The notes: generated from the letters alone by a model not told the origin. A DNA stretch of 64,000 bases from Candidatus Latescibacterota bacterium (GCA_965248355.1 OZ252098.1:576001-640000), one strand, 5' to 3'. Positions 1 through 10,528 are shown, counted from the stretch's first letter. Program-made: numbers and translations.

Positions 1-87
1 GAGATCGACAAGGCCCTGGCCAGCGGCAGCACGAGCAAGTCGGAGGATTCGCTGGCCCAGCTCAAGTCGAAGATGGGCATCAGCTGA
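1..87 (+). CDS. 3' end of a probable PspA/IM30 family protein (partial)
   Basis: Frame 1 reads EIDKALASGSTSKSEDSLAQLKSKMGIS*, resembling the 'LAxLKxKMG' C-terminus of PspA/IM30. The neighbourhood (SpeE, DUF350, DUF4178) matches known PspA contexts. Confidence 0.55.
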   Translation, partial: EIDKALASGSTSKSEDSLAQLKSKMGIS

Positions 88-154
88 CGGCGGCCCTACT
101 CCGCTCCGCAGCAGACCGTCGCCCGCAGTTCCCTGTCATACAGAGTACCCGCCG

Positions 155-1834
155 ATGACGCAGGTGCCGCGCAGGAGCTTCCTCAAGAGGCTCCTGGCCG
201 GCTCCGTGTGCCTGCCCTGGGCCTGTACCGAGGGCCGGCCATCGCGCCATGACGTCGATGTCGAGGCGCGCTTCGTCGATGCCGTGTCGCCGGAGCGTGG
301 CCACCTGCTGCGGCGCCCCGTCGAGCCCACGGAGTTTGCCGCGGCGGCCGGCCCCCCCGTCGATGTGCTCGTCGTCGGCGGCGGCGTGTCGGGGCTGGCG
401 GCCTGCTGGAAGCTCCGGCAGGCCGGGGTGGAGCGCCTGCTCCTGGTGGAGCTCGCCGACCGCCTCGGCGGCAATGCCATGGCCGGGCAGGCAGGAGACC
501 TGGTCTTTCCCTGGGGGGCCCACTACATCAACGTGCCGCCATCGGAGGCCGACTGCGTACACGAGGTGTTGTCCGATCTCGACGTGATCTCCGGGTACGA
601 CGCGGCCGGGCGCCCCATGGTGAACCCCGACCACCTGTTGCGCTGGCCCGCCGAGAGGTTGTGGGTGGACGGAGACTGGGTCGAGGGACTCGACCCCTTC
701 GCCGACGCCGGAGACGGGGAGAGGGAGGACCTGTGGGCCTTCGAGGACGACATGTTGCGCTGGACTCTGCACCACGGGCAGGATGGACGCCGGGCCTTCG
801 CCATGCCCCTGGCCTACAGCACGGCCGATGCCCGGGTGCGCCAGTTGGACGGCCAGACCATGGCGGAGTACGTGGAGAGCCGCGGTTGGCGCGGAGGCCG
901 CCTTGCATGGCTCATCGACCAGGCCTGCAAGGACGACTACGGCAGCCTCGCTGCCGACGTCTCGGCCTGGGCGGGCATCCACTACTTCGCCTGCCGCTAC
1001 TACGACCGCCGCTTGCGGGAAGACTACCCCTCCGACACGCTCACCTGGCCCCAGGGCAACCAGTTCCTCGTCGACGGCCTGGGGCGCGGGCTGACGGCCG
1101 GAGAGCAATGGCTGGCGACGGGGGTCGTCGGCCTGCGCGGAGAGGGAACGACGGCCGAGGCCCTGTGCATCCACGCCCCCACGGGAGAGCGGCGGCGGGT
1201 CCGGGCCCGGTCCGTCGTCTACGCCGGCAAGCTGCACACGGCCGCGCGCGTGGTCGCGGATCTGCCCGGTGCCCAACGGCGCGCCATCGAGCGGCTGAGC
1301 TACGTCCCCTGGGTCGTGGCCGCGGTGAGGCTGTCCGCAGAGCTGGGCGACGCGGGTCTGGCCTGGGACAACGTGGTGATGGACAGCCCTTCCGTCGGGT
1401 ATGTCTCCGCCCGTCACCAGACCTCACCGGCCCCGGAGCGGGCGGGTGAGGTGCTCGTCTACTACCTGCCCCTGGTCGAGGATCCGGCCGCGGCCCGACA
1501 GGAGCTGCTGGGGGAGGATCCGCAGCCGTGGGCCCGAAGGGTGATGGCCGACCTGTCGCGCGTCCATCCCCAGTTGCCCGGTCTGGTGGAAGGAATCGAC
1601 ATCTGCCGCTGGGGCCACGGCATGGTCCGTCCGGCCCCGGGCGTCATCTGGGGGCCCGAGAGCCATCTGCGGCGCCAGCCGTGCGGGGCCGTGGCCTTCG
1701 CCTCGTGCGACGCCACCGGGCTGCCCCTCTTCGAAGAGTCCCTGTTCGCCGGCATCGCCGCGGCCGAGCGCTGTCTCGACGTGCTCGACGCTCCCTACAC
1801 GACCTCTCTCCACGGCATGCCGGCCCATGGATGA
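155..1834 (+). CDS. Tat-signal FAD-dependent oxidoreductase (flavin amine oxidase-like)
   Basis: N-terminal PRRSFLK twin-arginine motif, VLVVGGGVSG Rossmann motif, ELADRLGG, GAHY and a C-terminal RWGHG. Confidence 0.8.
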   Translation: MTQVPRRSFLKRLLAGSVCLPWACTEGRPSRHDVDVEARFVDAVSPERGHLLRRPVEPTEFAAAAGPPVDVLVVGGGVSGLAACWKLRQAGVERLLLVELADRLGGNAMAGQAGDLVFPWGAHYINVPPSEADCVHEVLSDLDVISGYDAAGRPMVNPDHLLRWPAERLWVDGDWVEGLDPFADAGDGEREDLWAFEDDMLRWTLHHGQDGRRAFAMPLAYSTADARVRQLDGQTMAEYVESRGWRGGRLAWLIDQACKDDYGSLAADVSAWAGIHYFACRYYDRRLREDYPSDTLTWPQGNQFLVDGLGRGLTAGEQWLATGVVGLRGEGTTAEALCIHAPTGERRRVRARSVVYAGKLHTAARVVADLPGAQRRAIERLSYVPWVVAAVRLSAELGDAGLAWDNVVMDSPSVGYVSARHQTSPAPERAGEVLVYYLPLVEDPAAARQELLGEDPQPWARRVMADLSRVHPQLPGLVEGIDICRWGHGMVRPAPGVIWGPESHLRRQPCGAVAFASCDATGLPLFEESLFAGIAAAERCLDVLDAPYTTSLHGMPAHG

Positions 1835-3368
1835 GCCGGCGGTGGACCGCGGCCCCTGGGGGACGGCGCTGCTCCTGGCCGCCATCTTCTCGGCGGCGGC
1901 CTGCGCCATCGTCTACGAGCTCCTCATCGGCAGCACCTCGGCCTACTTCCTCGGTGACAGCGTCGAGCAGTTCTCCGTCACCATCGGCCTCTTCCTCGCC
2001 TCCATGGGCCTGGGCTCCTGGGTGTCGCGGGCCATCACGGACCGGCTGCTGGAGCGCTTCATCGCCTTCGAGCTGTGGCTGGCGGCCGTGGGAGGATGCT
2101 CCGTGCCGGTCCTCTACCTCGCGTACCTCCACAGCGGCCAATTCCGCTACGTCATGGTCCTCCTCATCGTCGCCGTGGGCGCCCTCGTCGGCCTGGAGCT
2201 GCCGCTGCTGACCCGCATGCTGCAGCGCTACGGCGAGCTGCGCACGGTGCTGTCCAACGTCCTGTTCCTCGACTACCTGGGCTCTCTGCTGGCGGCCCTG
2301 CTCTTTCCCTATCTGCTGCTGCCCCTGCTGGGCGCCTTCGACACCGCCCTGGCGGCCGGACTGCTCAACGCCGGCGTCGGGCTCGTGCTGCTGGCCGGGT
2401 TCTGGTCCAGGCTGTCGCCCGGACCGCGGCGGAGGCTCCTGGCATTGGGGGTCGTCGTCGCCGGCGGGCTGGGCCTGACCCTGGCGGCGGCCAACCCCCT
2501 CCGCGAGCGGCTGGAGAGCGATCTCTACACCGACCAGATCGTCTACAGCGAGCGCTCGCCGTACCAGCAGATCGTCCTCACCCAGTGGCGGGACGACGTC
2601 CGACTCTACCTGGACCGGCACCTGCAGTTCTCCTCCGTCGACGAGTACCGCTATCACGAGGCCCTCGTCCACCCGGCCATGGCCATGGCCCGCCACCGGC
2701 AGCGGGTGCTCGTCATCGGCGGCGGCGACGGGCTCTCGGTGAGGGAGGTGCTGCGCCACGGCGACGTGGAGCAGGTCGACCTGGTGGATCTGGATCCCGC
2801 CGTCACGGACCTCGCCCGCCGTGACCTGCGCCTGACGCGCCTCAACGACAACGCTCTCAGCCGGCCGGGAGTCCGTATCTTCTCCGAGGACGGTTTCGCC
2901 TTCCTCCAGCGCGCGCACGAGGCCTACGGGGTCATCATCATCGACCTGCCGGATCCCCGGGACGAGGCCCTGTCCAAGCTCTACTCGGTCGAGGTCTACC
3001 GCCTGTGCTCCCGCCATCTCTCTCCTGACGGGGTGGTGGTCACGCAGGCCTCGAGTCCCTACTATGCGAGGACCACGTTCTGGAGCATAGCCGCCACCAT
3101 GGCCGAGGCCGGGTTGCGCGTCGTGCCCTACCACACACTCGTGCCGTCCTTCGGCGAGTGGGGGTTCGTGGCCGGCTTCAGCGGTGGCCGTGGAGAGCCG
3201 GCGGATGTGACCTTCCATGTGGCCGGCCTTCGTTTCATGACACCGGGGATGTTCCGGCAGATGCTGATCTTCCCCAGCGACATGAGCCGGCCCGCCGACG
3301 TCGTCGTCAACCGCCTCGACCGGCCTGTGCTGGCGCGGCAGTACCGGGAAGACTGGAGCCGCTGGTAG
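1827..3368 (+). CDS. speE: Polyamine aminopropyltransferase (spermidine synthase) with N-terminal multi-TM domain
   Basis: About 7 hydrophobic helices followed by SPYQQI, YHEALVHP, LVIGGGDG, VDLDP and IIDLPDP motifs. Confidence 0.9.
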   Translation: MDEPAVDRGPWGTALLLAAIFSAAACAIVYELLIGSTSAYFLGDSVEQFSVTIGLFLASMGLGSWVSRAITDRLLERFIAFELWLAAVGGCSVPVLYLAYLHSGQFRYVMVLLIVAVGALVGLELPLLTRMLQRYGELRTVLSNVLFLDYLGSLLAALLFPYLLLPLLGAFDTALAAGLLNAGVGLVLLAGFWSRLSPGPRRRLLALGVVVAGGLGLTLAAANPLRERLESDLYTDQIVYSERSPYQQIVLTQWRDDVRLYLDRHLQFSSVDEYRYHEALVHPAMAMARHRQRVLVIGGGDGLSVREVLRHGDVEQVDLVDLDPAVTDLARRDLRLTRLNDNALSRPGVRIFSEDGFAFLQRAHEAYGVIIIDLPDPRDEALSKLYSVEVYRLCSRHLSPDGVVVTQASSPYYARTTFWSIAATMAEAGLRVVPYHTLVPSFGEWGFVAGFSGGRGEPADVTFHVAGLRFMTPGMFRQMLIFPSDMSRPADVVVNRLDRPVLARQYREDWSRW

Positions 3369-3386
3369 CGGGGGGAGGGAGATCCG

Positions 3387-3959
3387 ATGATCAGCCTGGG
3401 CCGAAAGTGGTTCGGGGGCAAGGACCCCGAGGATGAAAACGCCGGTCTCGCCGACCTGCGGCTCGATTCCATGCGCAACGGCGATCTGGTCGACTACGAC
3501 CTGAAGACCTGGGAGGTCACCGGCCGGAGCGTCTACGACTACGACGGCGTCCCGGGCCGGGAGTGGCAGCTGACCTGCGGCGACGAGGTGCGTTTCCTCG
3601 AGCGCTCCGAGGAGGACGGGCGGGTCGAGTGGACGTTGACGCGGAGCATCTCCATCGGTGACATTCAGGAGGACGTGACCGCCGCCATCGCCGCTGACGA
3701 GGACCCGCCCGGGTCGATCCACTTCGAGGGCCGGCGGTACGAGGCGTCGGAGTCGACCGCCGGGGTGCAGTGGGACATGGCAGACGACGGTTCGAAGGAC
3801 GAGGGAGCCGGACGCGAGTTCGTCAACTGGAGCTACGAGGCCGGGGACGGGCGCGTCCTGTTTCTCGTGCAATGGGGTGAACAGCGGTTCTCCGCCTACG
3901 AAGGGGAGAACGTCGAGGAGTACTCCTTCACCGACATCCTGCCTGGAGGCGAGCGGTGA
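3387..3959 (+). CDS. DUF4178-like acidic protein
   Basis: GDLVDYDLKTWEVTG...YD...REW-L and PPxxIxFEGxxY patterns; strong RBS; usual partner of SpeE/DUF350. Confidence 0.6.
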   Translation: MISLGRKWFGGKDPEDENAGLADLRLDSMRNGDLVDYDLKTWEVTGRSVYDYDGVPGREWQLTCGDEVRFLERSEEDGRVEWTLTRSISIGDIQEDVTAAIAADEDPPGSIHFEGRRYEASESTAGVQWDMADDGSKDEGAGREFVNWSYEAGDGRVLFLVQWGEQRFSAYEGENVEEYSFTDILPGGER

Positions 3960-4702
3960 GCCAAGAGAGGGATCCCCGAAGGGCCGAGACCCGTACGGCT
4001 CCGATCTGCCGGGCGGCGGTCGTGGGGGCCGCCCTGACCGCCATGGCCGTCATCACCGGGTGCGGCCGCACCCCGGATCCGGTGGAGCAGGCGAGCCGCG
4101 ACCTGGAACGCTACCCGGAATATGCCGTCATGATCGAGGATCTGAAGGTGGAGGACGGATTCTTCCCCGACTACTTCCTCCGCCTGCGGATCATGACGGC
4201 CAGCGGCCAGCGAGTCGCCGGGAAGGACACGCTGGTCTACGAGGACCGGGTCACGAAGTGGCAGGAGGTGGAGGAGGAGGTCATGGCCCGCTACCAGCAC
4301 TACCTGGGCATGGTGGTGGCCAGCAAGACCCTCGACGGCCAGCGCACCACGGCCCGGCAGGCCCACCCGCCGGGGTATCAGTACGTCGGCAACAGCCAGT
4401 ACGGGTCCTGGGGCGGCGGCGGGTTCTGGCAGTTCTACGGCCAGTACGCCTTCATGAGTCACATGCTCGGCGGCTTCGGGGTAGGCCGCCGCGACTACGA
4501 CGGCTACCGTCGCAACCGCGAGGTCGGCCGCCCCCACTTCGGCCCCACCCGCCAGGGGCGGCAGACCTTCGGCACCGCCGGGACCCAGACCCAGAAGACC
4601 CGTCCCAGCTTCTACAAGCGCTACCGGCAGCGCTCCGCGGGGGGTGGGCGCGGCTTCACCTCGCGGGCCGTCAGCCGCGGCGGAAGCCGCTTCGGCAAGT
4701 GA
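3956..4702 (+). CDS. Hypothetical lipoprotein with Gly/Arg-rich C-terminal tail
   Basis: Hydrophobic stretch ending VITG-C (lipobox-like), PPGYQYVGNxxYGxW motif, SRGGSRFGK tail; overlaps the upstream stop (GTGA). Confidence 0.65.
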   Translation: MSQERDPRRAETRTAPICRAAVVGAALTAMAVITGCGRTPDPVEQASRDLERYPEYAVMIEDLKVEDGFFPDYFLRLRIMTASGQRVAGKDTLVYEDRVTKWQEVEEEVMARYQHYLGMVVASKTLDGQRTTARQAHPPGYQYVGNSQYGSWGGGGFWQFYGQYAFMSHMLGGFGVGRRDYDGYRRNREVGRPHFGPTRQGRQTFGTAGTQTQKTRPSFYKRYRQRSAGGGRGFTSRAVSRGGSRFGK

Positions 4703-4733
4703 AGCCCCGAGAATGTTGAGAGGGAGGTAGCCA

Positions 4734-5582
4734 GTGGAATACGACATGCTGATTCCCATGGGCAGGTCCGCCGTGTACCTGATCGAGGCCTTCGTTCTGC
4801 TCGTCATCGCCAAGTGGGCGTACACCCGTCTCTACCGACGGGTGCATCTGAAGGAGGAGCTCTTCGACAAGGGCAACGCCGCCCTCGCGGTGTCGACGGC
4901 CGGCTACCTCTTCGGCATCGTCATCGCCCTGGGAGGCGTACTTGCAGGGCCCTCCGCGGGATGGCAGGCGGATCTGACGGCCACCGCCCTCTACGGCCTC
5001 ATGACCATCGCCATGATGCTGGCCGCCAGCTGGCTGTGCGAGAAGGTCCTGCTCTCCCGCTTCGACAATACCAAGGAAGTCGTGGAGGACCAGAACCTGG
5101 GCACGGCCTTCGTCGAAGCCGGGGTCCACATCGCCAACGGTCTCATCCTGCTGGCCATTCAGCAGGGCGCCGGTCCCTGGTGGGCGGGCCTCGTGTTCTG
5201 GGCCCTGGCCCAAGCCGTGCTGGTGCTCCTCGGGCGGCTCTACGAGATGGCCACGCCCCACAGCATCCACGACGAGCTCGAGCGCGACAACGCCGCCGTG
5301 GGACTCGCCCTTGCGGGCGCGCTGGTGGGGATGGGCAACATCATCAGCATCGCCGTGGCCGGTGACTTCGCCGGCTGGCGGGAGGGTTTGATCACCTTTG
5401 CCGCCGATGCCGCCTTCGGTCTGGTCATCCTCCTCATCATCAGGCGACTGAGCGACGTCCTGCTGGCTCCCGGCGTCAGCCTGGCCGCTCAGCAGACGCA
5501 CGAGACGCCCCGCATCGGGGCCGGTCTGCTGGAGGCCTTCGGTTACGTGGGCGGCAGCATGCTGGTCGTCTGGGTACTCTGA
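4734..5582 (+). CDS. DUF350 family membrane protein (internally repeated)
   Basis: About 8 TM helices with repeated 'EELFDKGNAALAV', 'EVVEDQNLGTA' and 'DELERDNAAVG' motifs; GGAGG RBS. Confidence 0.75.
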   Translation: MEYDMLIPMGRSAVYLIEAFVLLVIAKWAYTRLYRRVHLKEELFDKGNAALAVSTAGYLFGIVIALGGVLAGPSAGWQADLTATALYGLMTIAMMLAASWLCEKVLLSRFDNTKEVVEDQNLGTAFVEAGVHIANGLILLAIQQGAGPWWAGLVFWALAQAVLVLLGRLYEMATPHSIHDELERDNAAVGLALAGALVGMGNIISIAVAGDFAGWREGLITFAADAAFGLVILLIIRRLSDVLLAPGVSLAAQQTHETPRIGAGLLEAFGYVGGSMLVVWVL

Positions 5583-5648
5583 CACCCGAGCCCGGGCCCC
5601 CTCCGAGAGATCCCGCTCCGGAAGAGGCGCGCCCGACCCGAGATCTCC

Positions 5649-6689
5649 GTGCCCCTCTGGCTGCCCCTTGTGCGCGCCTGGCGCCGGGTCGTCCATCGCC
5701 ATTCGCTGGCGTGGATCTCCCTGCTGTCGGCCTCGCTCATCGTCGTCGGTGGTGTGCTGTTCTCGGTTCTCGAGGACCAGCCGCTCGGCGTCGGGCTATG
5801 GTGGGCGGTCGTAACGACGACGACCGTCGGCTACGGGGACTACTCTCCGGTGACCGCCCTGGGCCGGGCGGTGGGCGCCGTTCTGATGGTGCTCGGTATC
5901 GGCGTTCTCGGCGGTTTCACGGCGGAGCTGGCCACCTTCATCATCGAGCACCGGAGCAAGAAAGACAGGGGGATCAAGCCCGTGAAGACGAGTGGACACG
6001 TCCTGGTCTGCGGCTGGAACGAGACCGGCGAGGACCTGGTCCGCAACATCCTCGCCGACAGTCTCCGGGTGGAAGTCGTGGTTCTCGCCGAGCTTCCCTC
6101 TCACCCCATGCCCGCCAAGGGCGAGGCCGGCCGTGTGAATTTCGTCCGCGGGAGGGTGGACGCGGAGGCCCTGGACCACGCTAGCGCCCGGAACTGCTCG
6201 GGGGCGGTGATCCTGGGAGATCAGGAGATCGAGGACACGGCCGGCCGCGATGCCAAGACGCTGATCGGGGCCCTGACGGTCAAGGAGTACGAGCCGGGCC
6301 TCCACGTCTGCATTCAGCTCTTCGATGCCGGCTCCACACGGCACGCCGGCATCTCCGGGGCCGACGAGGTCGTGGTCGTGGGCGCCCTCTCCAGCGGGCT
6401 GCTGAGCCGCGCCGTCCTCGACCCGGGCAGCTCGCGGGCGATCTCGAGTCTGGTGCGCGCCGAGGAGCAGTGCGAGATCTACCTTGTCGACGTGCCCTCC
6501 GACTGGCCGGGAAGGCGCTTCGATGAGATGCTGCAGGTCGCCAAGGAGACGCACGATGTGCTGCTGGTCGGCGTCGAACCGGCGGCAGGGGGCCTGGTGG
6601 TGAATCCCCCTGGCGACTACGCCTTCTCCACCGGGGACCGGCTGGCCGTCATCGCCGAGGACCGCCCCGACATCCGGACCCGGCACTGA
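5649..6689 (+). CDS. 2-TM potassium channel with TrkA-N/RCK domains
   Basis: WWAVVTTTTVGYGD pore signature and HVLVCGW Rossmann-type RCK start. Confidence 0.9.
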   Translation: MPLWLPLVRAWRRVVHRHSLAWISLLSASLIVVGGVLFSVLEDQPLGVGLWWAVVTTTTVGYGDYSPVTALGRAVGAVLMVLGIGVLGGFTAELATFIIEHRSKKDRGIKPVKTSGHVLVCGWNETGEDLVRNILADSLRVEVVVLAELPSHPMPAKGEAGRVNFVRGRVDAEALDHASARNCSGAVILGDQEIEDTAGRDAKTLIGALTVKEYEPGLHVCIQLFDAGSTRHAGISGADEVVVVGALSSGLLSRAVLDPGSSRAISSLVRAEEQCEIYLVDVPSDWPGRRFDEMLQVAKETHDVLLVGVEPAAGGLVVNPPGDYAFSTGDRLAVIAEDRPDIRTRH

Positions 6690-7060
6690 TGAGCCCCCCG
6701 CCGAGCTCCGCCCTGGGCCGCCATCTCCTGGTCGATCTCTACGGTTGTGCCCGGGGGCGGCTGGACGACGTGGACTACGTCCGCCAGGGCCTGCTGGCCG
6801 CGGCCGGGCAGGTCGGCGCCACCGTCGTGGACGCCCACTTCCACAGCTTCTCGCCATGCGGCGTCACCGGGACCGTGTCGATTCAGGAGAGCCATCTCTC
6901 CATCCACACCTGGCCCGAGCACCTGTACGCCGCCGTCGACATCTTCACCTGCGGCGACTCCATCGATCCGTGGCGCGCCTACGAGTCTCTCAAGACTGCG
7001 CTCGAGGCCGACAGGGGCTCCGCCATGGAGATCCACCGCGGCAGACCCGACCTGTTGTAG
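6689..7060 (+). CDS. speD: S-adenosylmethionine decarboxylase proenzyme
   Basis: LGRHLLVDLYGC, the ESHLSIHTWPE self-cleavage (pyruvoyl) motif and VDIFTCG. Confidence 0.93.
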   Translation: MSPPPSSALGRHLLVDLYGCARGRLDDVDYVRQGLLAAAGQVGATVVDAHFHSFSPCGVTGTVSIQESHLSIHTWPEHLYAAVDIFTCGDSIDPWRAYESLKTALEADRGSAMEIHRGRPDLL

Positions 7061-7180
7061 CGGTCCTGTCGAAGCGGTCGCGCCAGATCCGGGCGTTCTT
7101 CCCAAGGGCGCCGGTGAAGAGCGGCTTTCCGGGTCACGGTTTCCGCCCTTGGCCCGGATCTACTCTCATATGTGCTCCCC

Positions 7181-7261
7181 ATGAGTCTGCCGGAGAGACC
7201 TCCGAAACCAGGTGAGCTGGTCCTCGTCCGCTCGCGCCGCTGGTTGGTCGAGGAAGTAGCC
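7181..7261 (+). pseudogene. N-terminal relic of a DISARM DrmD-like SNF2 helicase
   Basis: MSLPERPPKPGELVLVRSRRWLVEEV matches my recollection of DrmD N-termini (PxxGxLVxVRxRxWxVxxV); the frame then degenerates. Confidence 0.5.
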
Positions 7262-7378
7262 AAACTCGCTTCGATGAGCTGGTCACAGACAACCGGAGGG
7301 GAGAGTCGCCGTGACTGGGGCCATACGTCTTCAGGGTGGGATACGGCCTCGGTCGAAGAGGCGGAGTGAGGACCGTTC

Positions 7379-7462
7379 GGTGAATCCGTGACCGACAGCC
7401 CCCAGAACCGCAAGCCCGCCGCCTCCGCCGACGTGCGCGGGCGCCTCATCGAGGCGCTGAAT
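7379..7462 (+). repeat. 84-bp imperfect direct repeat, copy 1 (5' end of a drmA-like gene)
   Basis: 77 of 84 bases match 8237-8320 by manual alignment. Confidence 0.9.
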
Positions 7463-7479
7463 TGTCAGAACCCTTGGGA

Positions 7480-7508
7480 TTGACGCTCGACGCAAACATA
7501 CCTAGGCT
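7480..7508 (+). promoter_or_regulatory. Sigma70-type promoter of the phd-vapC operon
   Basis: TTGACG-N17-TAGGCT, overlapped and followed by the imperfect palindrome CTGATAGCTAGTCAG (possible autorepression operator). Confidence 0.55.
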
Positions 7509-7545
7509 GATAGCTAGTCAGTCAGGATGCCAGAGGAGGTCGGAC

Positions 7546-7806
7546 ATGAGCAGGAAATGGCCAGTCCAGGACGCCAAGATGCGGTTCAGCGAACTCTTGG
7601 ATACAGCTCTCGCCGAGGGGCCCCAGATCGTCACCAAACGAGGTGTCGAGACCGCTGTGCTCCTTCCCATTGAGCAGTGGCGCAGGATGGAGCGCATGAC
7701 CAGACCCAACCTGAAGGAACTCCTTCTTGTATCCGGAGCGCGCACCGACAACCTCACTCCACCGCGCCAGCAGCGCCGCCGTCGCGGACCCTTGGCGATG
7801 GAGTAA
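7546..7806 (+). CDS. Phd/YefM family antitoxin
   Basis: WPVQDAKMRFSELL...GPQIVTKRG...AVLL; GAGGAGG RBS. Confidence 0.88.
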   Translation: MSRKWPVQDAKMRFSELLDTALAEGPQIVTKRGVETAVLLPIEQWRRMERMTRPNLKELLLVSGARTDNLTPPRQQRRRRGPLAME

Positions 7807-7811
7807 GTTGC

Positions 7812-8219
7812 ATGTATCTCCTCGACACCAACGTGGTGTCCGAGCTGCGCCGTCCCCGTCCGCACGGAGCCGTAATGGAATGGCTCGCAGACGTGCCCGC
7901 GGAGCAGCTCTTCGTGTCCGCCGTCACGATAGGTGAGATTCAGGCGGGTATCGAGATTACCCGTGAGCAGGATGCAGTCAAGGCGGGGGAGCTGGAAGCG
8001 TGGCTGGACATGGTCCTGGGCTCCTACGGCGTATTGCCGATGGACGCAGCCGCCTTTCGTGAATGGGCGCGGCTCATGCACGGGACGTCGGACTCCTTGA
8101 GCGAGGACGCCATGATTGCGGCGACGGCTACGGTTCACAGGCTGAGGATGGTCACCCGCAATGTCGGTGATTTCGCGCAGTTCGGCGTGGACTTGCTGAA
8201 CCCCTTCGAAACGGAATAG
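7812..8219 (+). CDS. vapC: VapC PIN-domain toxin
   Basis: MYLLDTNVVSE, SAVTIGEI, EDAMIAATA and VTRNVGDF motifs. Confidence 0.9.
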   Translation: MYLLDTNVVSELRRPRPHGAVMEWLADVPAEQLFVSAVTIGEIQAGIEITREQDAVKAGELEAWLDMVLGSYGVLPMDAAAFREWARLMHGTSDSLSEDAMIAATATVHRLRMVTRNVGDFAQFGVDLLNPFETE

Positions 8220-8320: not shown

Positions 8321-8646
8321 CTCGACCTCGTCGGACCCTGGGCCGCCACTCCTTGGCCGGCGAGCGCCTGCCGGGGTGGATCCGGCCCTCGAACTGGTAC
8401 CTGACCGGTTTCATGATTCCCTCCGGGGCCGCGGCCGGGCAGAGCGCCGACAAGGAAGAAGACGCACTCGAAGTCACCGTCTCCTGGGGTGACTACGAGC
8501 CGGTGAAGCTCGAAGATGACGGGGGCAGGATCGTGTCGGTCTGGCAGCGGATCCCCCGCCTGGAGAAGCTCCGCCGGAAGCTCGGGGATGAAGACCCTGG
8601 TGTCAGCAATGTCCCGGAGTCCGGCGGTCTCGTGCTTCATCTTGAA
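8246..8646 (+). pseudogene. Frameshifted N-terminal relic of a DISARM DrmA-like helicase
   Basis: EVRQRLIEALNLDLVGP, then in a shifted frame ERLPGWIRPSNWYLTGFMIP, VTVSWGDY, SVWQRIPR and VPESGGL, as recalled for DrmA N-termini; no helicase core follows. Confidence 0.55.
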
Positions 8647-8833
8647 GGCCCTGTTGCGGTTGCCGGCCCACGTGCGCCGCGGCCTGGCGAGCGCACTCGA
8701 GGCGGGCATGCTGCCGGAACATCGAGATGGGCCTGGTGCTGCGGGACCGCGCCTTGGCCGCGAGCGTGACCAGACATTTCCGCGGGCTGATCGAACGGGG
8801 ATTGTTGCGGGCGCTCCCAATGGATTGATCGAC

Positions 8834-10528
8834 GTGCACCGCCCCCCCGCCTCCCTCCCCCTGGCCCTCCTCCTGGCCATCACCGCCCCGCCCGCCGATG
8901 GCCAGGTGACCTTCGTCGACGCGACCGACCAGGCCGGCATCGGCTTCCACTACACCCACGGCGGCACCGGCCGCAAGCACTTCATCGAGACCATGGGTCC
9001 GGGCTGCGCCTTCCTCGACTACGACGGCGACGGCCGCCTCGACATCTACGCCGTCAACGGGCACGCCCTCGACGGCTCCGAGCCGGCCGAGACCAACGAG
9101 CTCTACCGCAACCTGGGGGACGGCACCTTCCGCGAGGTCGGCCGCGAGACCGGCGCCGCCGACCGGGGCTACGGCGTGGGGGTGACCGCCGCCGACTACG
9201 ACAACGACGGCGACGCCGACCTCTACCTCACCAACTACGGGCCCAACGTCCTCCTGCGCGGCAAGGGCGACGGGACCTTCCGCGACCACACCGCCCGGGC
9301 CGGGGTGGGGGACGCGTCGTGGGGCACGGGCTGCGCCTTCCTCGACTACGACAACGACGGTCTCCTCGACCTCTACGTGGCCAACTACGTGGGGTACTCC
9401 CTCGACGCCGAAGGCCAGGACCTCACGCCGTACTTCCTCGCCGCTCCGGGCCAGGACCCGTCGGCCGACCTGCGGGCCTATCCCAGCCCGGAGAATTTCC
9501 CCGGCTCTCCCGACGTCCTCTACCGCAACGCCGGCGACGGCACCTTCGCCGACGTCACCGCCGCGGCCGGGGTCCTCGATCCCTCGGGCAAGGGGATGGG
9601 CCTGGCCACCTCCGACTACGACCGCGACGGCGACATGGACGTCTTCGTGGCCAACGACCAGACCGCCAACTTCCTCTACCGCAATGACGGCGACGGCACC
9701 TTCACCGACGTGGCCCTGCTGGCGGGGGTGGGCTACAGCGGGGACGGCCGGCCGGAAGCCAGCATGGGCGCCGACTTCGGCGACTACGACAACGACGGCT
9801 TCCTCGACCTCGTGGTCCCCAACTTCCACCGCGAGCCCACCAGCCTCTACCGCAACGAGGGGGACGGCCTGTTCTCCTGGGAGTCGATGCGGTCGGGCCT
9901 CGGACGCCCGTCGCTGGCCTACGTCGGCTGGGGGACCGCCTTCCTCGACTACGACAACGACGGGTTCCTGGATGTCTTCGTCGCCAACGGCCATACCCTG
10001 GACAATGTGCGGCTCTTCGATGCCGCCGCGTCGTACCCGCAGCCCGACCAGCTCTTCCGCAACACCGGGGCTGGCCGCTTCGAGGATGTCTCGCTCTCCT
10101 CGGGGGAAGCCCTCGCCGCGGCCAAGGTCAGCCGGGGAGCGGCCTTCGGTGATTATGACGACGACGGCGATACGGATATCTTCGTGGTCCATTCCACGGG
10201 CCGCGCCGATCTGCTGAGGAACGAGGGAGGCAACGCGGGCCACTGGCTCCAGGTCCGGACGGTGGGCGTGCGCGCCAACCGCGACGGCGTGGGGGCCCGG
10301 ATCGAGGTCCTCGCCGGCGGTCTGCGCCAGGTTCGGGAAATTCGCACCGGCTCCGGCCTCTACAGCCAGAACGACCCGCGGGCCTGCTTCGGCTTGGGGG
10401 CGCGCGAGTCGGTGGACCTGCTCGAGGTGCGGTGGCCGGGCGGCGGGGTGGACCGCGTGCAGGGCCTGGCCGCCAACCAGAGGGTTGTGATGGGGGAGGG
10501 AGTCGGGCTGGTGGAGGGACCGGAGTAA
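8834..10528 (+). CDS. Secreted CRTAC1/ASPIC-UnbV family FG-GAP repeat protein
   Basis: Multiple DYDNDGxxD repeats, C-terminal GxGARI...FGLG...LEVRWP (UnbV) and a signal peptide after GTG 8834; the start is estimated. Confidence 0.85.
   Translation: MHRPPASLPLALLLAITAPPADGQVTFVDATDQAGIGFHYTHGGTGRKHFIETMGPGCAFLDYDGDGRLDIYAVNGHALDGSEPAETNELYRNLGDGTFREVGRETGAADRGYGVGVTAADYDNDGDADLYLTNYGPNVLLRGKGDGTFRDHTARAGVGDASWGTGCAFLDYDNDGLLDLYVANYVGYSLDAEGQDLTPYFLAAPGQDPSADLRAYPSPENFPGSPDVLYRNAGDGTFADVTAAAGVLDPSGKGMGLATSDYDRDGDMDVFVANDQTANFLYRNDGDGTFTDVALLAGVGYSGDGRPEASMGADFGDYDNDGFLDLVVPNFHREPTSLYRNEGDGLFSWESMRSGLGRPSLAYVGWGTAFLDYDNDGFLDVFVANGHTLDNVRLFDAAASYPQPDQLFRNTGAGRFEDVSLSSGEALAAAKVSRGAAFGDYDDDGDTDIFVVHSTGRADLLRNEGGNAGHWLQVRTVGVRANRDGVGARIEVLAGGLRQVREIRTGSGLYSQNDPRACFGLGARESVDLLEVRWPGGGVDRVQGLAANQRVVMGEGVGLVEGPE

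Follow-up and report, generated by a model that had tools for sequence, protein, structure and literature searches.

The 5′ end of the window, a 64,000-nt stretch of the genome of a Candidatus Latescibacterota bacterium (GCA_965248355.1, OZ252098.1:576001-640000), carries a compact run of plus-strand genes, whose families were assigned by Pfam and NCBIfam profile searches. A gene for a PspA_IM30 protein of 235 aa (PF04012, E 4.1e-43) reaches into positions 1-87 with its last 28 codons. Next come a flavin amine-oxidase-like protein of 559 aa that is predicted to be exported (155-1834; a FAD/NAD-binding oxidoreductase by Pfam) and a membrane-fused aminopropyltransferase of 513 aa (1827-3368; PF01564, E 3.4e-38; NF002956, 608.9 bits against a cut-off of 472). 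They are followed by a 190-aa DUF4178 protein (3387-3959; PF13785, E 1e-20), a 248-aa lipoprotein without a catalogued family (3956-4702) and a 282-aa DUF350 (YjfL-family) membrane protein (4734-5582; PF03994, E 2.1e-46, in two stretches). The run closes with a 346-aa two-TM K+ channel bearing an RCK domain (5649-6689; PF07885, E 4.3e-14; PF22614, E 3e-7) and SpeD, a 123-aa class 1b pyruvoyl S-adenosylmethionine decarboxylase (AdoMetDC) proenzyme (6689-7060; PF02675, E 5.8e-40; TIGR03330, 138.8 bits against a cut-off of 75.65).

A preliminary description of this DNA had reported eight same-strand genes with overlapping or near-abutting junctions and expected pspA upstream. The ORF listing bore out the junctions, with seven complete genes and the end of pspA: neighbouring genes overlap by 8 nt at 1827/1834, 4 nt at 3956/3959 and 1 nt at 6689, and the remaining gaps between the complete genes are 18, 31 and 66 nt. 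The whole pspA gene, which begins outside the window, was found on the retrieved flanking contig (C1:575380-576087, equal to L003:9380-10087). The cluster itself was real but its count was one short: a CesT/Tir-like chaperone gene (CesT_Tir_1/YbjN, 131 aa; PF22550, E 3.8e-41) lies outside the window at L003:8940-9335, 44 nt before pspA, and brings the genes to nine. A scan of positions 1-7600 found two terminator-like sites against 1.7 expected, which gives no argument against a single transcription unit. Most of the operon is covered by RNA-library contigs from relatives of ~95% identity; a 3,301-nt contig among them corresponds to 2385-5698.

The nine-gene operon is genuine. Its order is identical in all three same-genus genomes fetched. 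Beyond the genus, we considered the best-scoring 80 of 596 related loci from many phyla, a non-random sample with many loci on truncated contigs. Within 6 kb of the enzyme and on its strand, these best 80 of 596 carried DUF350 and DUF4178 genes in 59 loci each, the oxidase in 48, SpeD in 45, a Band-7 gene in 31 and PspA in 6. The co-occurrence in other genomes that had been anticipated is thus present, and because the nine-gene order is repeated within the genus and the core genes stay together across many phyla, the arrangement is not due to chance. We newly recognise the flavin amine oxidase as one of the conserved partners in the operon. The commonest architecture in the sample (22 of the best 80 of 596 loci) is headed by Band-7 and, in one locus checked by Pfam, runs Band-7, SpeD, two DUF4178 genes, a microprotein, DUF350 (~70 aa), fusion enzyme and amine oxidase.

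The operon type is already in print, without a functional explanation. Ravi et al. 2024 (mSystems, PMC11237479) divide CesT/Tir-PspA operons into groups, the "second group" having a 7TM-spermine/spermidine-synthase fusion; the paper calls the N-terminal domain of the fusion "transporter-like", and suggests that the enzyme may aminopropylate "other substrates" and that covalent modifications affect membrane stability. Common to the second group and the window operon are the dyad of CesT/Tir and PspA, the SpdSyn-like enzyme fused to a membrane domain, an 8TM YjfL/DUF350 protein, a lipoprotein and DUF4178. The window operon adds the Tat-exported amine oxidase, the RCK K+ channel and AdoMetDC, all three listed there for other operon groups; its gene order differs and, unlike the second group as described, it shows no RHH regulator. 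Its lipoprotein sits at the place expected for the "Ctha_1186 domain" lipoprotein named in that paper, and no Pfam or NCBIfam model matched it. We are confident in classing the nine genes as an operon of the CesT/Tir-PspA and 7TM-aminopropyltransferase type already in the literature, to which, in this genus, the exported amine oxidase, the K+ channel and the AdoMetDC gene have been added.

Further cluster types resemble it. By the paper's description, the E. coli yjfIJKLMC-type operons ("third group", PMC11237479) also have a CesT/Tir-like YjfI, a PspA-like YjfJ, DUF350 (YjfL), a lipoprotein and sometimes a K+ channel; they are set apart by an ATP-grasp ligase related to glutathionylspermidine synthetase in place of the aminopropyltransferase, and by DUF2491 and DUF1190 in place of DUF4178 and the window lipoprotein. 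The Band-7-headed variant has the enzyme, SpeD, DUF4178 and DUF350 in common with the window operon, and also an oxidase bearing the export signal and, beside DUF350, a tail protein that ends in Lys; but its scaffold is Band-7 instead of CesT/PspA, its DUF350 protein is a single two-helix unit, and the tail sits on a membrane microprotein of ~60 aa, not on a lipoprotein. By the account of citing papers, Li, Kurihara, Kim, Liang and Michael (2019; Biochem J 476:2579) reportedly found clusters of AdoMetDC, a membrane-fused SpdSyn-like enzyme and DUF350, obtained negative complementation tests, saw no spermidine made by the fusions, and proposed a role of dcSAM outside polyamine synthesis. Those clusters are said to share with ours a class 1b AdoMetDC linked to the fusion and DUF350; the window cluster is headed by PspA, and the present analysis contributes the leads on Lys tail and topology. 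The earlier remark that no functional characterisation of such neighbourhoods was known is not quite right, given these reported complementation tests.

The fusion enzyme consists of an N-terminal domain of six or seven helices (~residues 10-222) and a C-terminal spermidine-synthase-fold domain (PF01564 match, residues 274-448) with GGGDG and DLPDP motifs. In its AF2 model (pLDDT 93.2), the best Foldseek matches were 1uir, 3anx, 7xif and 6qmm (TM-score on target 0.75-0.83), the nearest solved domains being broad-specificity triamine/agmatine aminopropyltransferases. An alignment of 55 sequences showed Q247, D272-E278, G298-G302, D321, D355, D373, D376 and P377 to be invariant or nearly so; D301, within the GGGDG at 298-302, is conserved in at least 90% of them, and D373, D376 and P377 of the D-x-x-D-P loop, whose Asp we take to be catalytic, are invariant. 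Judged by these motifs and by the fold match, the catalytic machinery is intact. An acidic residue in GxG(D/E)G marks aminopropyltransferases, excluding SAM and favouring dcSAM (PMC10349129), so that the Asp of GGGDG points to a dcSAM-type enzyme. The only characterised enzyme of like architecture appears to be the fungal NHMT (A. nidulans AN4663), presumably equivalent to the P. oryzae fusion protein. According to PMC10349129, NHMT works in the ER, where it modifies secreted proteins at their N-terminus, and likewise joins a seven-helix N-terminal membrane domain of ~215 residues to a spermidine-synthase-like Rossmann domain, acting on proteins that have crossed a membrane. It differs in carrying Ile in GxG(D/E)G and methylating with SAM, whereas the window enzyme keeps D301 and is linked to AdoMetDC; having Asp at that place, it resembles NHMT in architecture alone.

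The topology of the fusion bears on where its active site lies. Hydropathy gave six strong hydrophobic peaks and one weaker, and over the 55 sequences the even-numbered loops (2, 4 and 6) have 2.9, 3.3 and 3.0 Lys plus Arg per loop, the odd-numbered ones (1, 3 and 5) 0.0, 0.7 and 0.5; the stretch past the last helix has 1.2 Lys plus Arg and 3.4 Asp plus Glu. These charges would place the catalytic domain in the periplasm. The AF2 model, which leaves the choice between six and seven helices, draws residues 138-191 as one unbroken helix where hydropathy sees two segments; if that helix crossed the membrane once, there would be six helices and the catalytic domain would be cytoplasmic. Synthesis of dcSAM is cytoplasmic. 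To our knowledge no dcSAM exporter has been described, so a periplasmic active site would need an unproven transport step. The helix bundle holds four conserved buried acidic residues.

The lipoprotein carries a lipobox (ITGC, Cys36); it has a small N-terminal domain, and its tail, rich in Arg, Gly and Ser, ends in Gly-Lys. It had no Pfam, NCBIfam or PDB match and no match to the LPP family, and its 254 homologs are all unnamed. The Gly-Lys C-terminus is nevertheless near-invariant: it is present in 117 of 120 homologs (a lipobox-like motif in 99 of 120) and in all 12 kin and locus orthologs. Within the best 80 of 596 loci, 52 of the 59 bearing DUF350 have an ORF that ends in [G/H]K with its stop no more than 400 nt upstream of DUF350, against a chance expectation of ~1.8 loci (background, 160 of 25,757 ORFs). 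No Lys-ending ORF was seen in the 400-nt window at the other seven, of which one meets a contig end and another has such an ORF before a second DUF350 match. Other operon types carry the same kind of tail on a membrane microprotein of ~60 aa, whose orientation, judged by eye, is ambiguous, and firmicute-type operons carry a Lys tail on a DUF4178 extension. The conserved ending is a concrete lead for the lipoprotein as acceptor. In Braun's lipoprotein Lpp, the ε-amino group of the C-terminal lysine bonds covalently to peptidoglycan diaminopimelate. The window protein would resemble Lpp as a lipoprotein whose function rests on that group; Lpp, however, is a short coiled coil unrelated in sequence or family, whereas the window protein combines a small domain with a long tail rich in Arg and Gly. 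Lpp-like attachment to peptidoglycan is an alternative use for the lysine, which we counted against a role as acceptor.

The oxidase begins with a twin-arginine motif (RRSFLK, residues 6-11) followed by a hydrophobic stretch and a Cys, a predicted Tat signal, and 38 of 47 orthologs show the RR signal pattern. For the window protein itself, relaxing the threshold to E 10 still gave no matches other than to models of the FAD-binding N-terminus; PF01593 (Amino_oxidase) matched 44 of 51 aligned family members, and the family profile matched MAO (MAO-B) and putrescine oxidase in PDB, the latter over profile positions 39-345. The DUF4178 protein is all-beta (AF2 pLDDT 91.2) and is predicted to be cytoplasmic, with no signal peptide and no TM or hydrophobic segment; its model found no clear solved relative (Foldseek TM ~0.2; best VIA Z 6.1). 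The DUF350 protein has ~8 TM helices arranged as four two-helix repeats (seven hydrophobic peaks) and repeated motifs containing Asn/Asp in the alignment, while its relatives in other operon types measure ~70 aa.

Profile searches of the genome, rated 95.7% complete, found a single AdoMet_dc match, the operon SpeD, and five Spermine_synth matches, of which only the operon enzyme has the acidic GxGxG residue (read by eye). Nothing exceeded the cut-off for ornithine, arginine or lysine decarboxylases, agmatinase/arginase or carboxy(nor)spermidine enzymes (nspC, Sacchrp_dh_C, OKR_DC_1, PvlArgDC and Arginase models), and these searches revealed no route to putrescine or agmatine. The single Orn_Arg_deC_N gene, a fold-III decarboxylase, is best matched by LysA (251.8 bits). 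A gene split over two frames, for a group II PLP decarboxylase with weak similarity to DABA decarboxylase, may be a source of 1,3-diaminopropane. The preliminary description held that this is not housekeeping spermidine synthesis, and that its reading would suffer if the enzyme were the genome's only spermidine synthase and a plain putrescine enzyme. Of the latter, the first half was found, in that the enzyme is the sole dcSAM-type aminopropyltransferase (one of five Spermine_synth matches). The claim itself fits both the single AdoMetDC, with no diamine-forming enzyme above cut-off, and PMC12803844, where bacterial membrane-APT fusions were shown experimentally to make neither spermidine nor spermine.

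Modification of an envelope protein is a more probable task for the operon enzyme than ordinary spermidine synthesis. Gene content, conservation, motifs, export signals and the conserved Lys tail are shown by the data above. In a scheme built on them, whose chemical steps, topology and direction of control we infer, SpeD, judged by its family, would make decarboxylated SAM in the cytoplasm, and the helix bundle with its buried acidic residues would bring it across the membrane. At the periplasmic face, where the catalytic domain would emerge beyond the final helix, on the side with few positive charges, the fusion enzyme would move the aminopropyl group to the ε-amino group of the lipoprotein's C-terminal lysine instead of to putrescine. 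The Tat-exported oxidase could then act on the aminopropylated tail, removing the group or converting it to an aldehyde, and DUF350 as membrane partner, with DUF4178 and CesT/PspA on the cytoplasmic side, might together link the modification to membrane stress. That the enzyme aminopropylates the tail lysine outside the cytoplasm is a tentative proposal, falling somewhat short of an even chance. A non-putrescine acceptor, lipoprotein or lipid, had been suggested beforehand; the Gly-Lys tail now gives a lead for the lipoprotein, while the idea itself already stands in PMC11237479.

The cytoplasmic origin of dcSAM, and the unbroken helix 138-191 that fits six helices with the C-terminus inside, would suit an enzyme facing the cytoplasm and aminopropylating a small metabolite other than putrescine. 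The product, an envelope-protecting or signalling amine that the periplasmic oxidase degrades or converts, would leave the cell interior through the helix bundle and/or DUF350, and the Lys-tailed protein would be structural or regulatory. The "transporter-like" domain (PMC11237479), the predicted export of the oxidase and the broad specificity of the nearest solved domains point the same way. We nonetheless consider this unlikely: the Lys/Arg-rich loop 6 (3.0 per 11 residues, 55 sequences) would end up on the outer face, contrary to the positive-inside rule, the genome shows no evident acceptor pathway, and the near-invariant Gly-Lys end with its fixed place beside DUF350 is left unexplained. 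Similarly improbable is an acceptor amine on a lipid or polymer of the envelope, for instance the head group of phosphatidylethanolamine, the meso-diaminopimelate of peptidoglycan or LPS, with the Lys-tailed protein as an Lpp-like peptidoglycan tether holding the complex at the wall. A lipobox with a C-terminal Lys is a hallmark of Lpp-type linkage, and the joining of membrane domain to transferase, the exported partners and the PspA and Band-7 scaffolds, which point to membrane physiology, agree with it. So does the suggestion of modifications affecting membrane stability in PMC11237479. But the lipoprotein matches neither Lpp nor any other Pfam family, the present data identify no lipid or glycan acceptor, and the firmicute-type tail on a DUF4178 extension is foreign to known Lpp biology.

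Very unlikely, in our judgement, is an ordinary membrane-anchored polyamine synthase releasing free spermidine- or norspermidine-type products from imported or unrecognised diamines, with the oxidase serving polyamine catabolism. It would account for the NCBI model name ("polyamine aminopropyltransferase"), the intact motifs, the sole dcSAM-type enzyme and the split DABA-decarboxylase-like gene. It sits poorly with the fusions' experimental non-involvement in spermidine or spermine synthesis (PMC12803844), with the lack of a diamine-forming enzyme above cut-off in the genome, and with a cross-phyla linkage to DUF350, DUF4178, the Lys-tailed protein and the exported oxidase that is unexpected for housekeeping.

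The tail-lysine proposal can be extended to a complete extracytoplasmic modification system, in which the helix bundle, perhaps with DUF350, carries dcSAM through the inner membrane to an active site facing the periplasm, one or more aminopropyl units are placed there on the lysine of the membrane-anchored tail protein, the Tat-exported oxidase trims or activates them, and PspA or Band-7 couples the process to membrane stress; this fuller version is rather doubtful. Were it to prove true, bacteria would have their first known case of SAM-type transferase chemistry outside the cytoplasm, and thousands of "orphan" AdoMetDC genes would gain the acceptor that has long been sought for them. What is new here is a genome with one AdoMetDC and one dcSAM-type enzyme, the partnership with the oxidase and its Tat signal, the Gly-Lys tail, and the topology suggested by loop charges.

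The K+ channel combines a two-helix pore and a TVGYGD filter with an RCK/TrkA domain that senses ligands in the cytoplasm. Only 3 of the best 80 of 596 related loci have it, as do 4 of 9 kin loci. It is thus an accessory specific to the lineage, which weakens the earlier suggestion that the system couples to ion flux; in the proposed scheme it would likewise be accessory.

The operon that opens the window very probably encodes a dcSAM-dependent envelope aminopropylation system tied to PspA, and not housekeeping polyamine synthesis. The ORF listing of the window holds seven complete plus-strand ORFs between 155 and 7060, which Pfam and NCBIfam describe, in order, as an FAD-binding oxidoreductase with an RRSFLK twin-arginine signal (the oxidase, 155..1834, 559 aa), a membrane-fused aminopropyltransferase of 513 aa (the enzyme, 1827..3368; PF01564, and NF002956 at 608.9 bits against a cut-off of 472), a DUF4178 protein, a 248-aa protein without a family (3956..4702), a 282-aa DUF350 protein, a two-helix K+ channel with an RCK domain, and the class 1b AdoMetDC SpeD (TIGR03330, 138.8 bits, cut-off 75.65). 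The preliminary description had placed pspA upstream, and the fetched DNA indeed contains a gene for a 235-aa PspA_IM30 protein ending at window bases 1-87 (+), preceded by a CesT_Tir_1/YbjN gene. The unit therefore comprises nine genes, not the eight first counted; the junctions named at that time hold, with overlaps of 8 nt (1827/1834), 4 nt (3956/3959) and 1 nt (6689) and remaining gaps of 18, 31 and 66 nt. Scanning of 1-7600 revealed no internal terminator signals above chance and no sigma-70-like promoter, and an Rfam search of the 11 kb upstream gave no match over the gathering score.

The operon ends about 400 nt before a VapBC-like pair (7462-8219, +), in which a Phd/YefM antitoxin gene (PF02604, E 1.3e-13) overlaps that of a PIN-domain toxin (PF01850, E 3.1e-15), followed by a 670-aa FG-GAP repeat protein with a C-terminal ASPIC/UnbV domain (8516-10528, +). 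On the other side, the fetched upstream locus L003 carries a DUF4340 protein and then very large TPR-repeat proteins of 794 and 1,093 aa (L003:770-6635), and about 2 kb of overlapping long ORFs on both strands (547 aa on +, 384 aa on -; no Pfam match) before the CesT-like gene (L003:6724-8604).

Operons of this kind are already published, and the nine-gene composition found here is a variant. The paper of Ravi et al. 2024 (PMC11237479) describes a "second major group" of CesT/Tir-PspA operons with a 7TM-fused spermine/spermidine-synthase-like protein, an 8TM YjfL/DUF350 protein, a novel lipoprotein and DUF4178, and attributes a K+ channel, AdoMetDC and "polyamine oxidase" to other groups; the window operon unites parts assigned there to separate groups. 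Citing Li et al. 2019, the same paper proposes that the systems monitor polyamines or "aminopropylation of other substrates". The central inference of the preliminary description, a non-housekeeping system possibly with a non-putrescine acceptor, had thus been published before. For the mycobacterial homolog operon Rv2597-Rv2601 our literature search found no functional study among the papers it listed; one paper names Rv2601 simply spermidine synthase.

The gene content of the genome argues against housekeeping spermidine synthesis. The genome is a single contig of 5.5 Mb rated 95.7% complete, in which the window spans G000:C1:576001-640000. The operon's own gene gives the only AdoMet_dc match. 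Spermine_synth matches number five: besides the enzyme, there are a 276-aa protein and three giant multi-helix fusions, and by eye the GxG(D/E)G site of these four has Ser or Leu in place of the Asp/Glu of aminopropyltransferases, a distinction taken from the study on the fungal methyltransferase NHMT (PMC10349129 and its preprint). The operon enzyme is therefore the sole evident consumer of dcSAM. The giant fusions (G000:C1:3161819-3164968, 4211334-4213847 and 4389778-4393122(-); about 815-1,076 aa, two with TPR tails) are probably methyltransferase-like "fused MFS/spermidine synthase" proteins. Six-frame searches of the whole genome found no nspC match over cut-off and no Sacchrp_dh_C, OKR_DC_1, PvlArgDC or Arginase-family match, and the one Orn_Arg_deC_N gene has LysA as its best model (251.8 bits). 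One group II PLP decarboxylase (PF00282) lies at G000:C1:4703008-4704112 (L119:1501-2605 in the locus fetched around it), split over two frames by a frameshift or assembly indel; its best NCBIfam model, DABA decarboxylase, matches weakly (61 and 56 bits; cut-off 900). With no diamine-forming match over cut-off, a diamine acceptor is not evidently made in this genome, although diamines may be taken up and, at 95.7% completeness, genes may have been missed.

Membrane-fused enzymes of this family are widespread: of the 8,000 candidates scored, at least 6,093 are homologs at E up to 1e-10. A scan of a genome collection confirmed 596 of 600 matched stretches, and the best 80 of the 596 loci were compared using iterative HMMs built from the window proteins, plus seeds from locus L029 (a Bryobacterales MAG) for DUF4178 and Band-7. 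These 80 loci, which are top-scoring and not a random sample, with many short contigs, come from Latescibacterota, Acidobacteriota, Gemmatimonadota, Proteobacteria, Myxococcota, Bacteroidota, Bacillota, Spirochaetota and other phyla. Co-occurrence of DUF350, DUF4178 and the TM-fused SpeE across phyla, a check suggested with the preliminary description, was borne out: counting genes within 6 kb of the enzyme on its strand, DUF350 was present at 59/80 loci and DUF4178 likewise at 59/80 (36 and 39 of the 47 full-flank loci, whose contigs reach 6 kb or more upstream and 3 kb or more downstream), followed by the oxidase (48/80; 34/47), SpeD (45/80; 30/47), Band-7 (31/80; 20/47) and PspA (6/80; 6/47). 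CesT, the window's lipoprotein and the K+ channel each reached 3/80 and 3/47; their models were built from a small number of close sequences and could overlook more distant relatives. Counting on both strands left the numbers nearly unchanged. The commonest architecture, seen in 22/80 loci and checked with Pfam in L029, is Band-7, SpeD, DUF4178, DUF4178, DUF350, enzyme, oxidase; in loci of the L055 type an 8TM DUF350 comes after the enzyme. L029 also carries two Uma2-family genes before the Band-7 gene (L029:5092-6290) and a TIR-NACHT STAND protein directly 3' of, and overlapping, the oxidase gene (L029:12995-15346).

At closer range, the enzyme was detected at E up to 1e-50 in 22 of 31 genomes (the source genome counted), including seven of the nine other genomes of the genus. 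Among nine kin loci fetched, three from the same genus have all nine genes in the same order; two from other genera of the family have no SpeD next to the operon, and one of these has no channel either; and four class-level relatives show CesT-PspA-DUF4178 facing lipoprotein-DUF350-enzyme with no oxidase nearby. Each of the five kin genomes tested has exactly one AdoMet_dc match, located elsewhere in the genome. The channel and the adjacent SpeD are thus recent local additions, which weakens the coupling to ion flux proposed in the preliminary description.

In an alignment of 55 sequences, the catalytic residues of the enzyme are invariant or nearly so (Q247, D272-E278, G298-G302 including D301, D321, D355, D373, D376 and P377). 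Its AF2 model (pLDDT 93.2) resembles in the C-terminal half the Thermus triamine/agmatine aminopropyltransferase and other SpeE structures (target TM-scores 0.75-0.83), and in the same comparison no solved structure covered the membrane half. Within the membrane helices many polar residues do not vary (Y30, E82, E124, D149, Y150 and N181), and E31, Q48 and R130 are conserved in at least 90% of the sequences. Fungal NHMT (PMC10349129) is the one protein with this architecture that has been characterised. A seven-helix domain of about 215 residues precedes its spermidine-synthase-like domain, and it is an ER protein that methylates secreted LPMOs at their N-terminal histidine. In contrast to D301 of the window enzyme, NHMT has Ile at the position of the motif acid. 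The fusion protein of P. oryzae is presumably an ortholog of NHMT.

Hydropathy reveals six strong segments and one weaker, in agreement with the 7TM assignment of Ravi et al. 2024. In the alignment of 55, loops 2, 4 and 6 have K+R counts of 2.9, 3.3 and 3.0 per loop and loops 1, 3 and 5 counts of 0.0, 0.7 and 0.5, and the stretch past the last helix has K+R 1.2 and D+E 3.4. By the positive-inside rule these loop charges indicate an N-in/C-out protein with a periplasmic catalytic domain. The AF2 secondary structure, however, contains an unbroken helix at 138-191, where hydropathy places two segments with a conserved Pro/Gly turn between them; a single membrane pass of this helix would leave the protein with six helices and put the catalytic domain in the cytoplasm. 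On balance we lean slightly towards the periplasmic orientation. A complex prediction for enzyme residues 1-235 with DUF350 scored 0.00 with no verdict from the tool and is uninformative either way. Natural fusions were rejected as topology evidence, as all three longer forms found read as frameshift or gene-model artefacts: two enzyme-oxidase "fusions" retain by eye, where the domains join, the oxidase signal peptide or an Arg-rich stretch that is out of frame, and P0393 (1,287 aa, eukaryote-labelled), with two DUF4178 domains, the membrane enzyme and the oxidase in one chain, most likely represents a bacterial operon whose genes a eukaryotic gene model has joined.

The oxidase of the window matches only FAD-binding N-terminal models; PF01593 (Amino_oxidase) is matched by 44 of 51 aligned family members, and among PDB entries the family profile finds monoamine, putrescine and polyamine oxidases. 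Of 47 full-length orthologs, 38 show a twin-arginine pattern ahead of the FAD motif; inspection by eye of the nine missing it showed RR in a variant context in three and a cut-off N-terminus in two. In many orthologs the hydrophobic stretch is followed by a Cys. From these signals the oxidase is predicted to be exported, in which case its substrate should lie outside the cytoplasm.

The family-less 248-aa protein is a lipoprotein by its lipobox (Cys36), and its small N-terminal domain is followed by a low-complexity Arg/Gly/Ser tail. It gave no Pfam, NCBIfam or PDB sequence match, and the Atlas returned only unnamed look-alike clusters plus a 0.86 lead to UPF0323. Among the 120 homologs listed of 254 (none named), 117 end in GK and 99 have a lipobox-like motif; the GK ending is also present in 12/12 kin and locus copies. 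Operons without the lipoprotein have, just before DUF350, an ORF of about 55-65 aa with one N-terminal hydrophobic helix, whose flank charges are ambiguous by eye, and a conserved tail that finishes in GGK or YHK; some firmicute loci carry this tail on the second DUF4178 protein, as part of its C-terminal extension. Within the 400 nt before DUF350, the stop of an ORF ending in [G/H]K is present in 52 of 59 DUF350-bearing loci, against 1.8 expected by chance (294 candidate ORFs at a background of 160/25,757). Of the seven exceptions, L031 ends at the contig end and L035 has such an ORF before its second DUF350 match. With a looser limit, counted from the enzyme and reaching 2.5 kb before or 3.5 kb after it, the number was 68/80 loci against an estimated 22 or so. 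These counts make a Lys-ending tail protein beside DUF350 a conserved core part. The literature searched, which covered few subscription journals and did not extend to Li et al. 2019, yielded no mention of such a protein or of protein-lysine aminopropylation by these enzymes.

AdoMetDC with the membrane-fused enzyme as its only partner occurs in thousands of bacterial genomes. This genome offers a clean case, in which a single decarboxylase and a single competent transferase share an operon with PspA and a diamine supply is not evident; the value of the window instance lies in this background and in the quantified conservation of the Lys tail and export signal. Together, the Gly-Lys tails and the exported oxidase make the identity of the aminopropyl acceptor directly testable. 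We tentatively propose, as a reading that could well prove wrong, that the enzyme would aminopropylate the terminal lysine of the tail protein at the periplasmic face and that the exported oxidase would then process the product. An acceptor of this type, a lysine in a protein on the outer side of the membrane, would represent a new kind of envelope modification and would give PspA- and Band-7-linked stress modules a defined biochemical output.

Other readings share parts of this evidence. The unbroken helix would suit an enzyme that faces the cytoplasm and makes an exported small molecule, which the predicted export of the oxidase would also accommodate; with the loop charges pointing to the opposite orientation, we consider it unlikely. 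The lipobox and the terminal Lys would also fit a Braun-lipoprotein-like peptidoglycan anchor, with a lipid or the wall as acceptor; this reading seems doubtful to us. A plain, membrane-anchored polyamine synthase would render the finding routine. It would depend on diamines that may be taken up or made by genes missed at 95.7% completeness. We regard it as quite improbable, and the preliminary description's view that this is not housekeeping spermidine synthesis fits the single AdoMet_dc within the operon and the lack of evident diamine synthesis in the genome.

Among the remaining components, the window DUF350 consists of four copies of a two-helix unit with repeated Asn/Asp motifs, whereas that of Band-7 operons is a single 70-aa unit. 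The DUF4178 model is all-beta (pLDDT 91.2). Foldseek found no fold relatives at E up to 0.001 (TM about 0.2), and a wide VIA search reached at best Z 6.1, under the level the tool calls common; resemblance to small beta-barrels (EF-P domain I, CarD) is accordingly not claimed. Hydropathy gave no signal peptide or TM segment for DUF4178; since it accompanies CesT-PspA in kin, it is probably a cytoplasmic adaptor.

Four RNA-library runs, three labelled as sponge metatranscriptomes, contain contigs 90-99% identical to the operon. These derive from close relatives, from libraries that can contain DNA, and a multi-gene contig is not proof of one transcript; read in this way, they lend weak support to expression of the operon. 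One of them, of 3,301 nt, covers 2385-5698 (enzyme, DUF4178, lipoprotein, DUF350 and the start of the channel), and others cover 3319-5099 and 1-284, the last continuing upstream.
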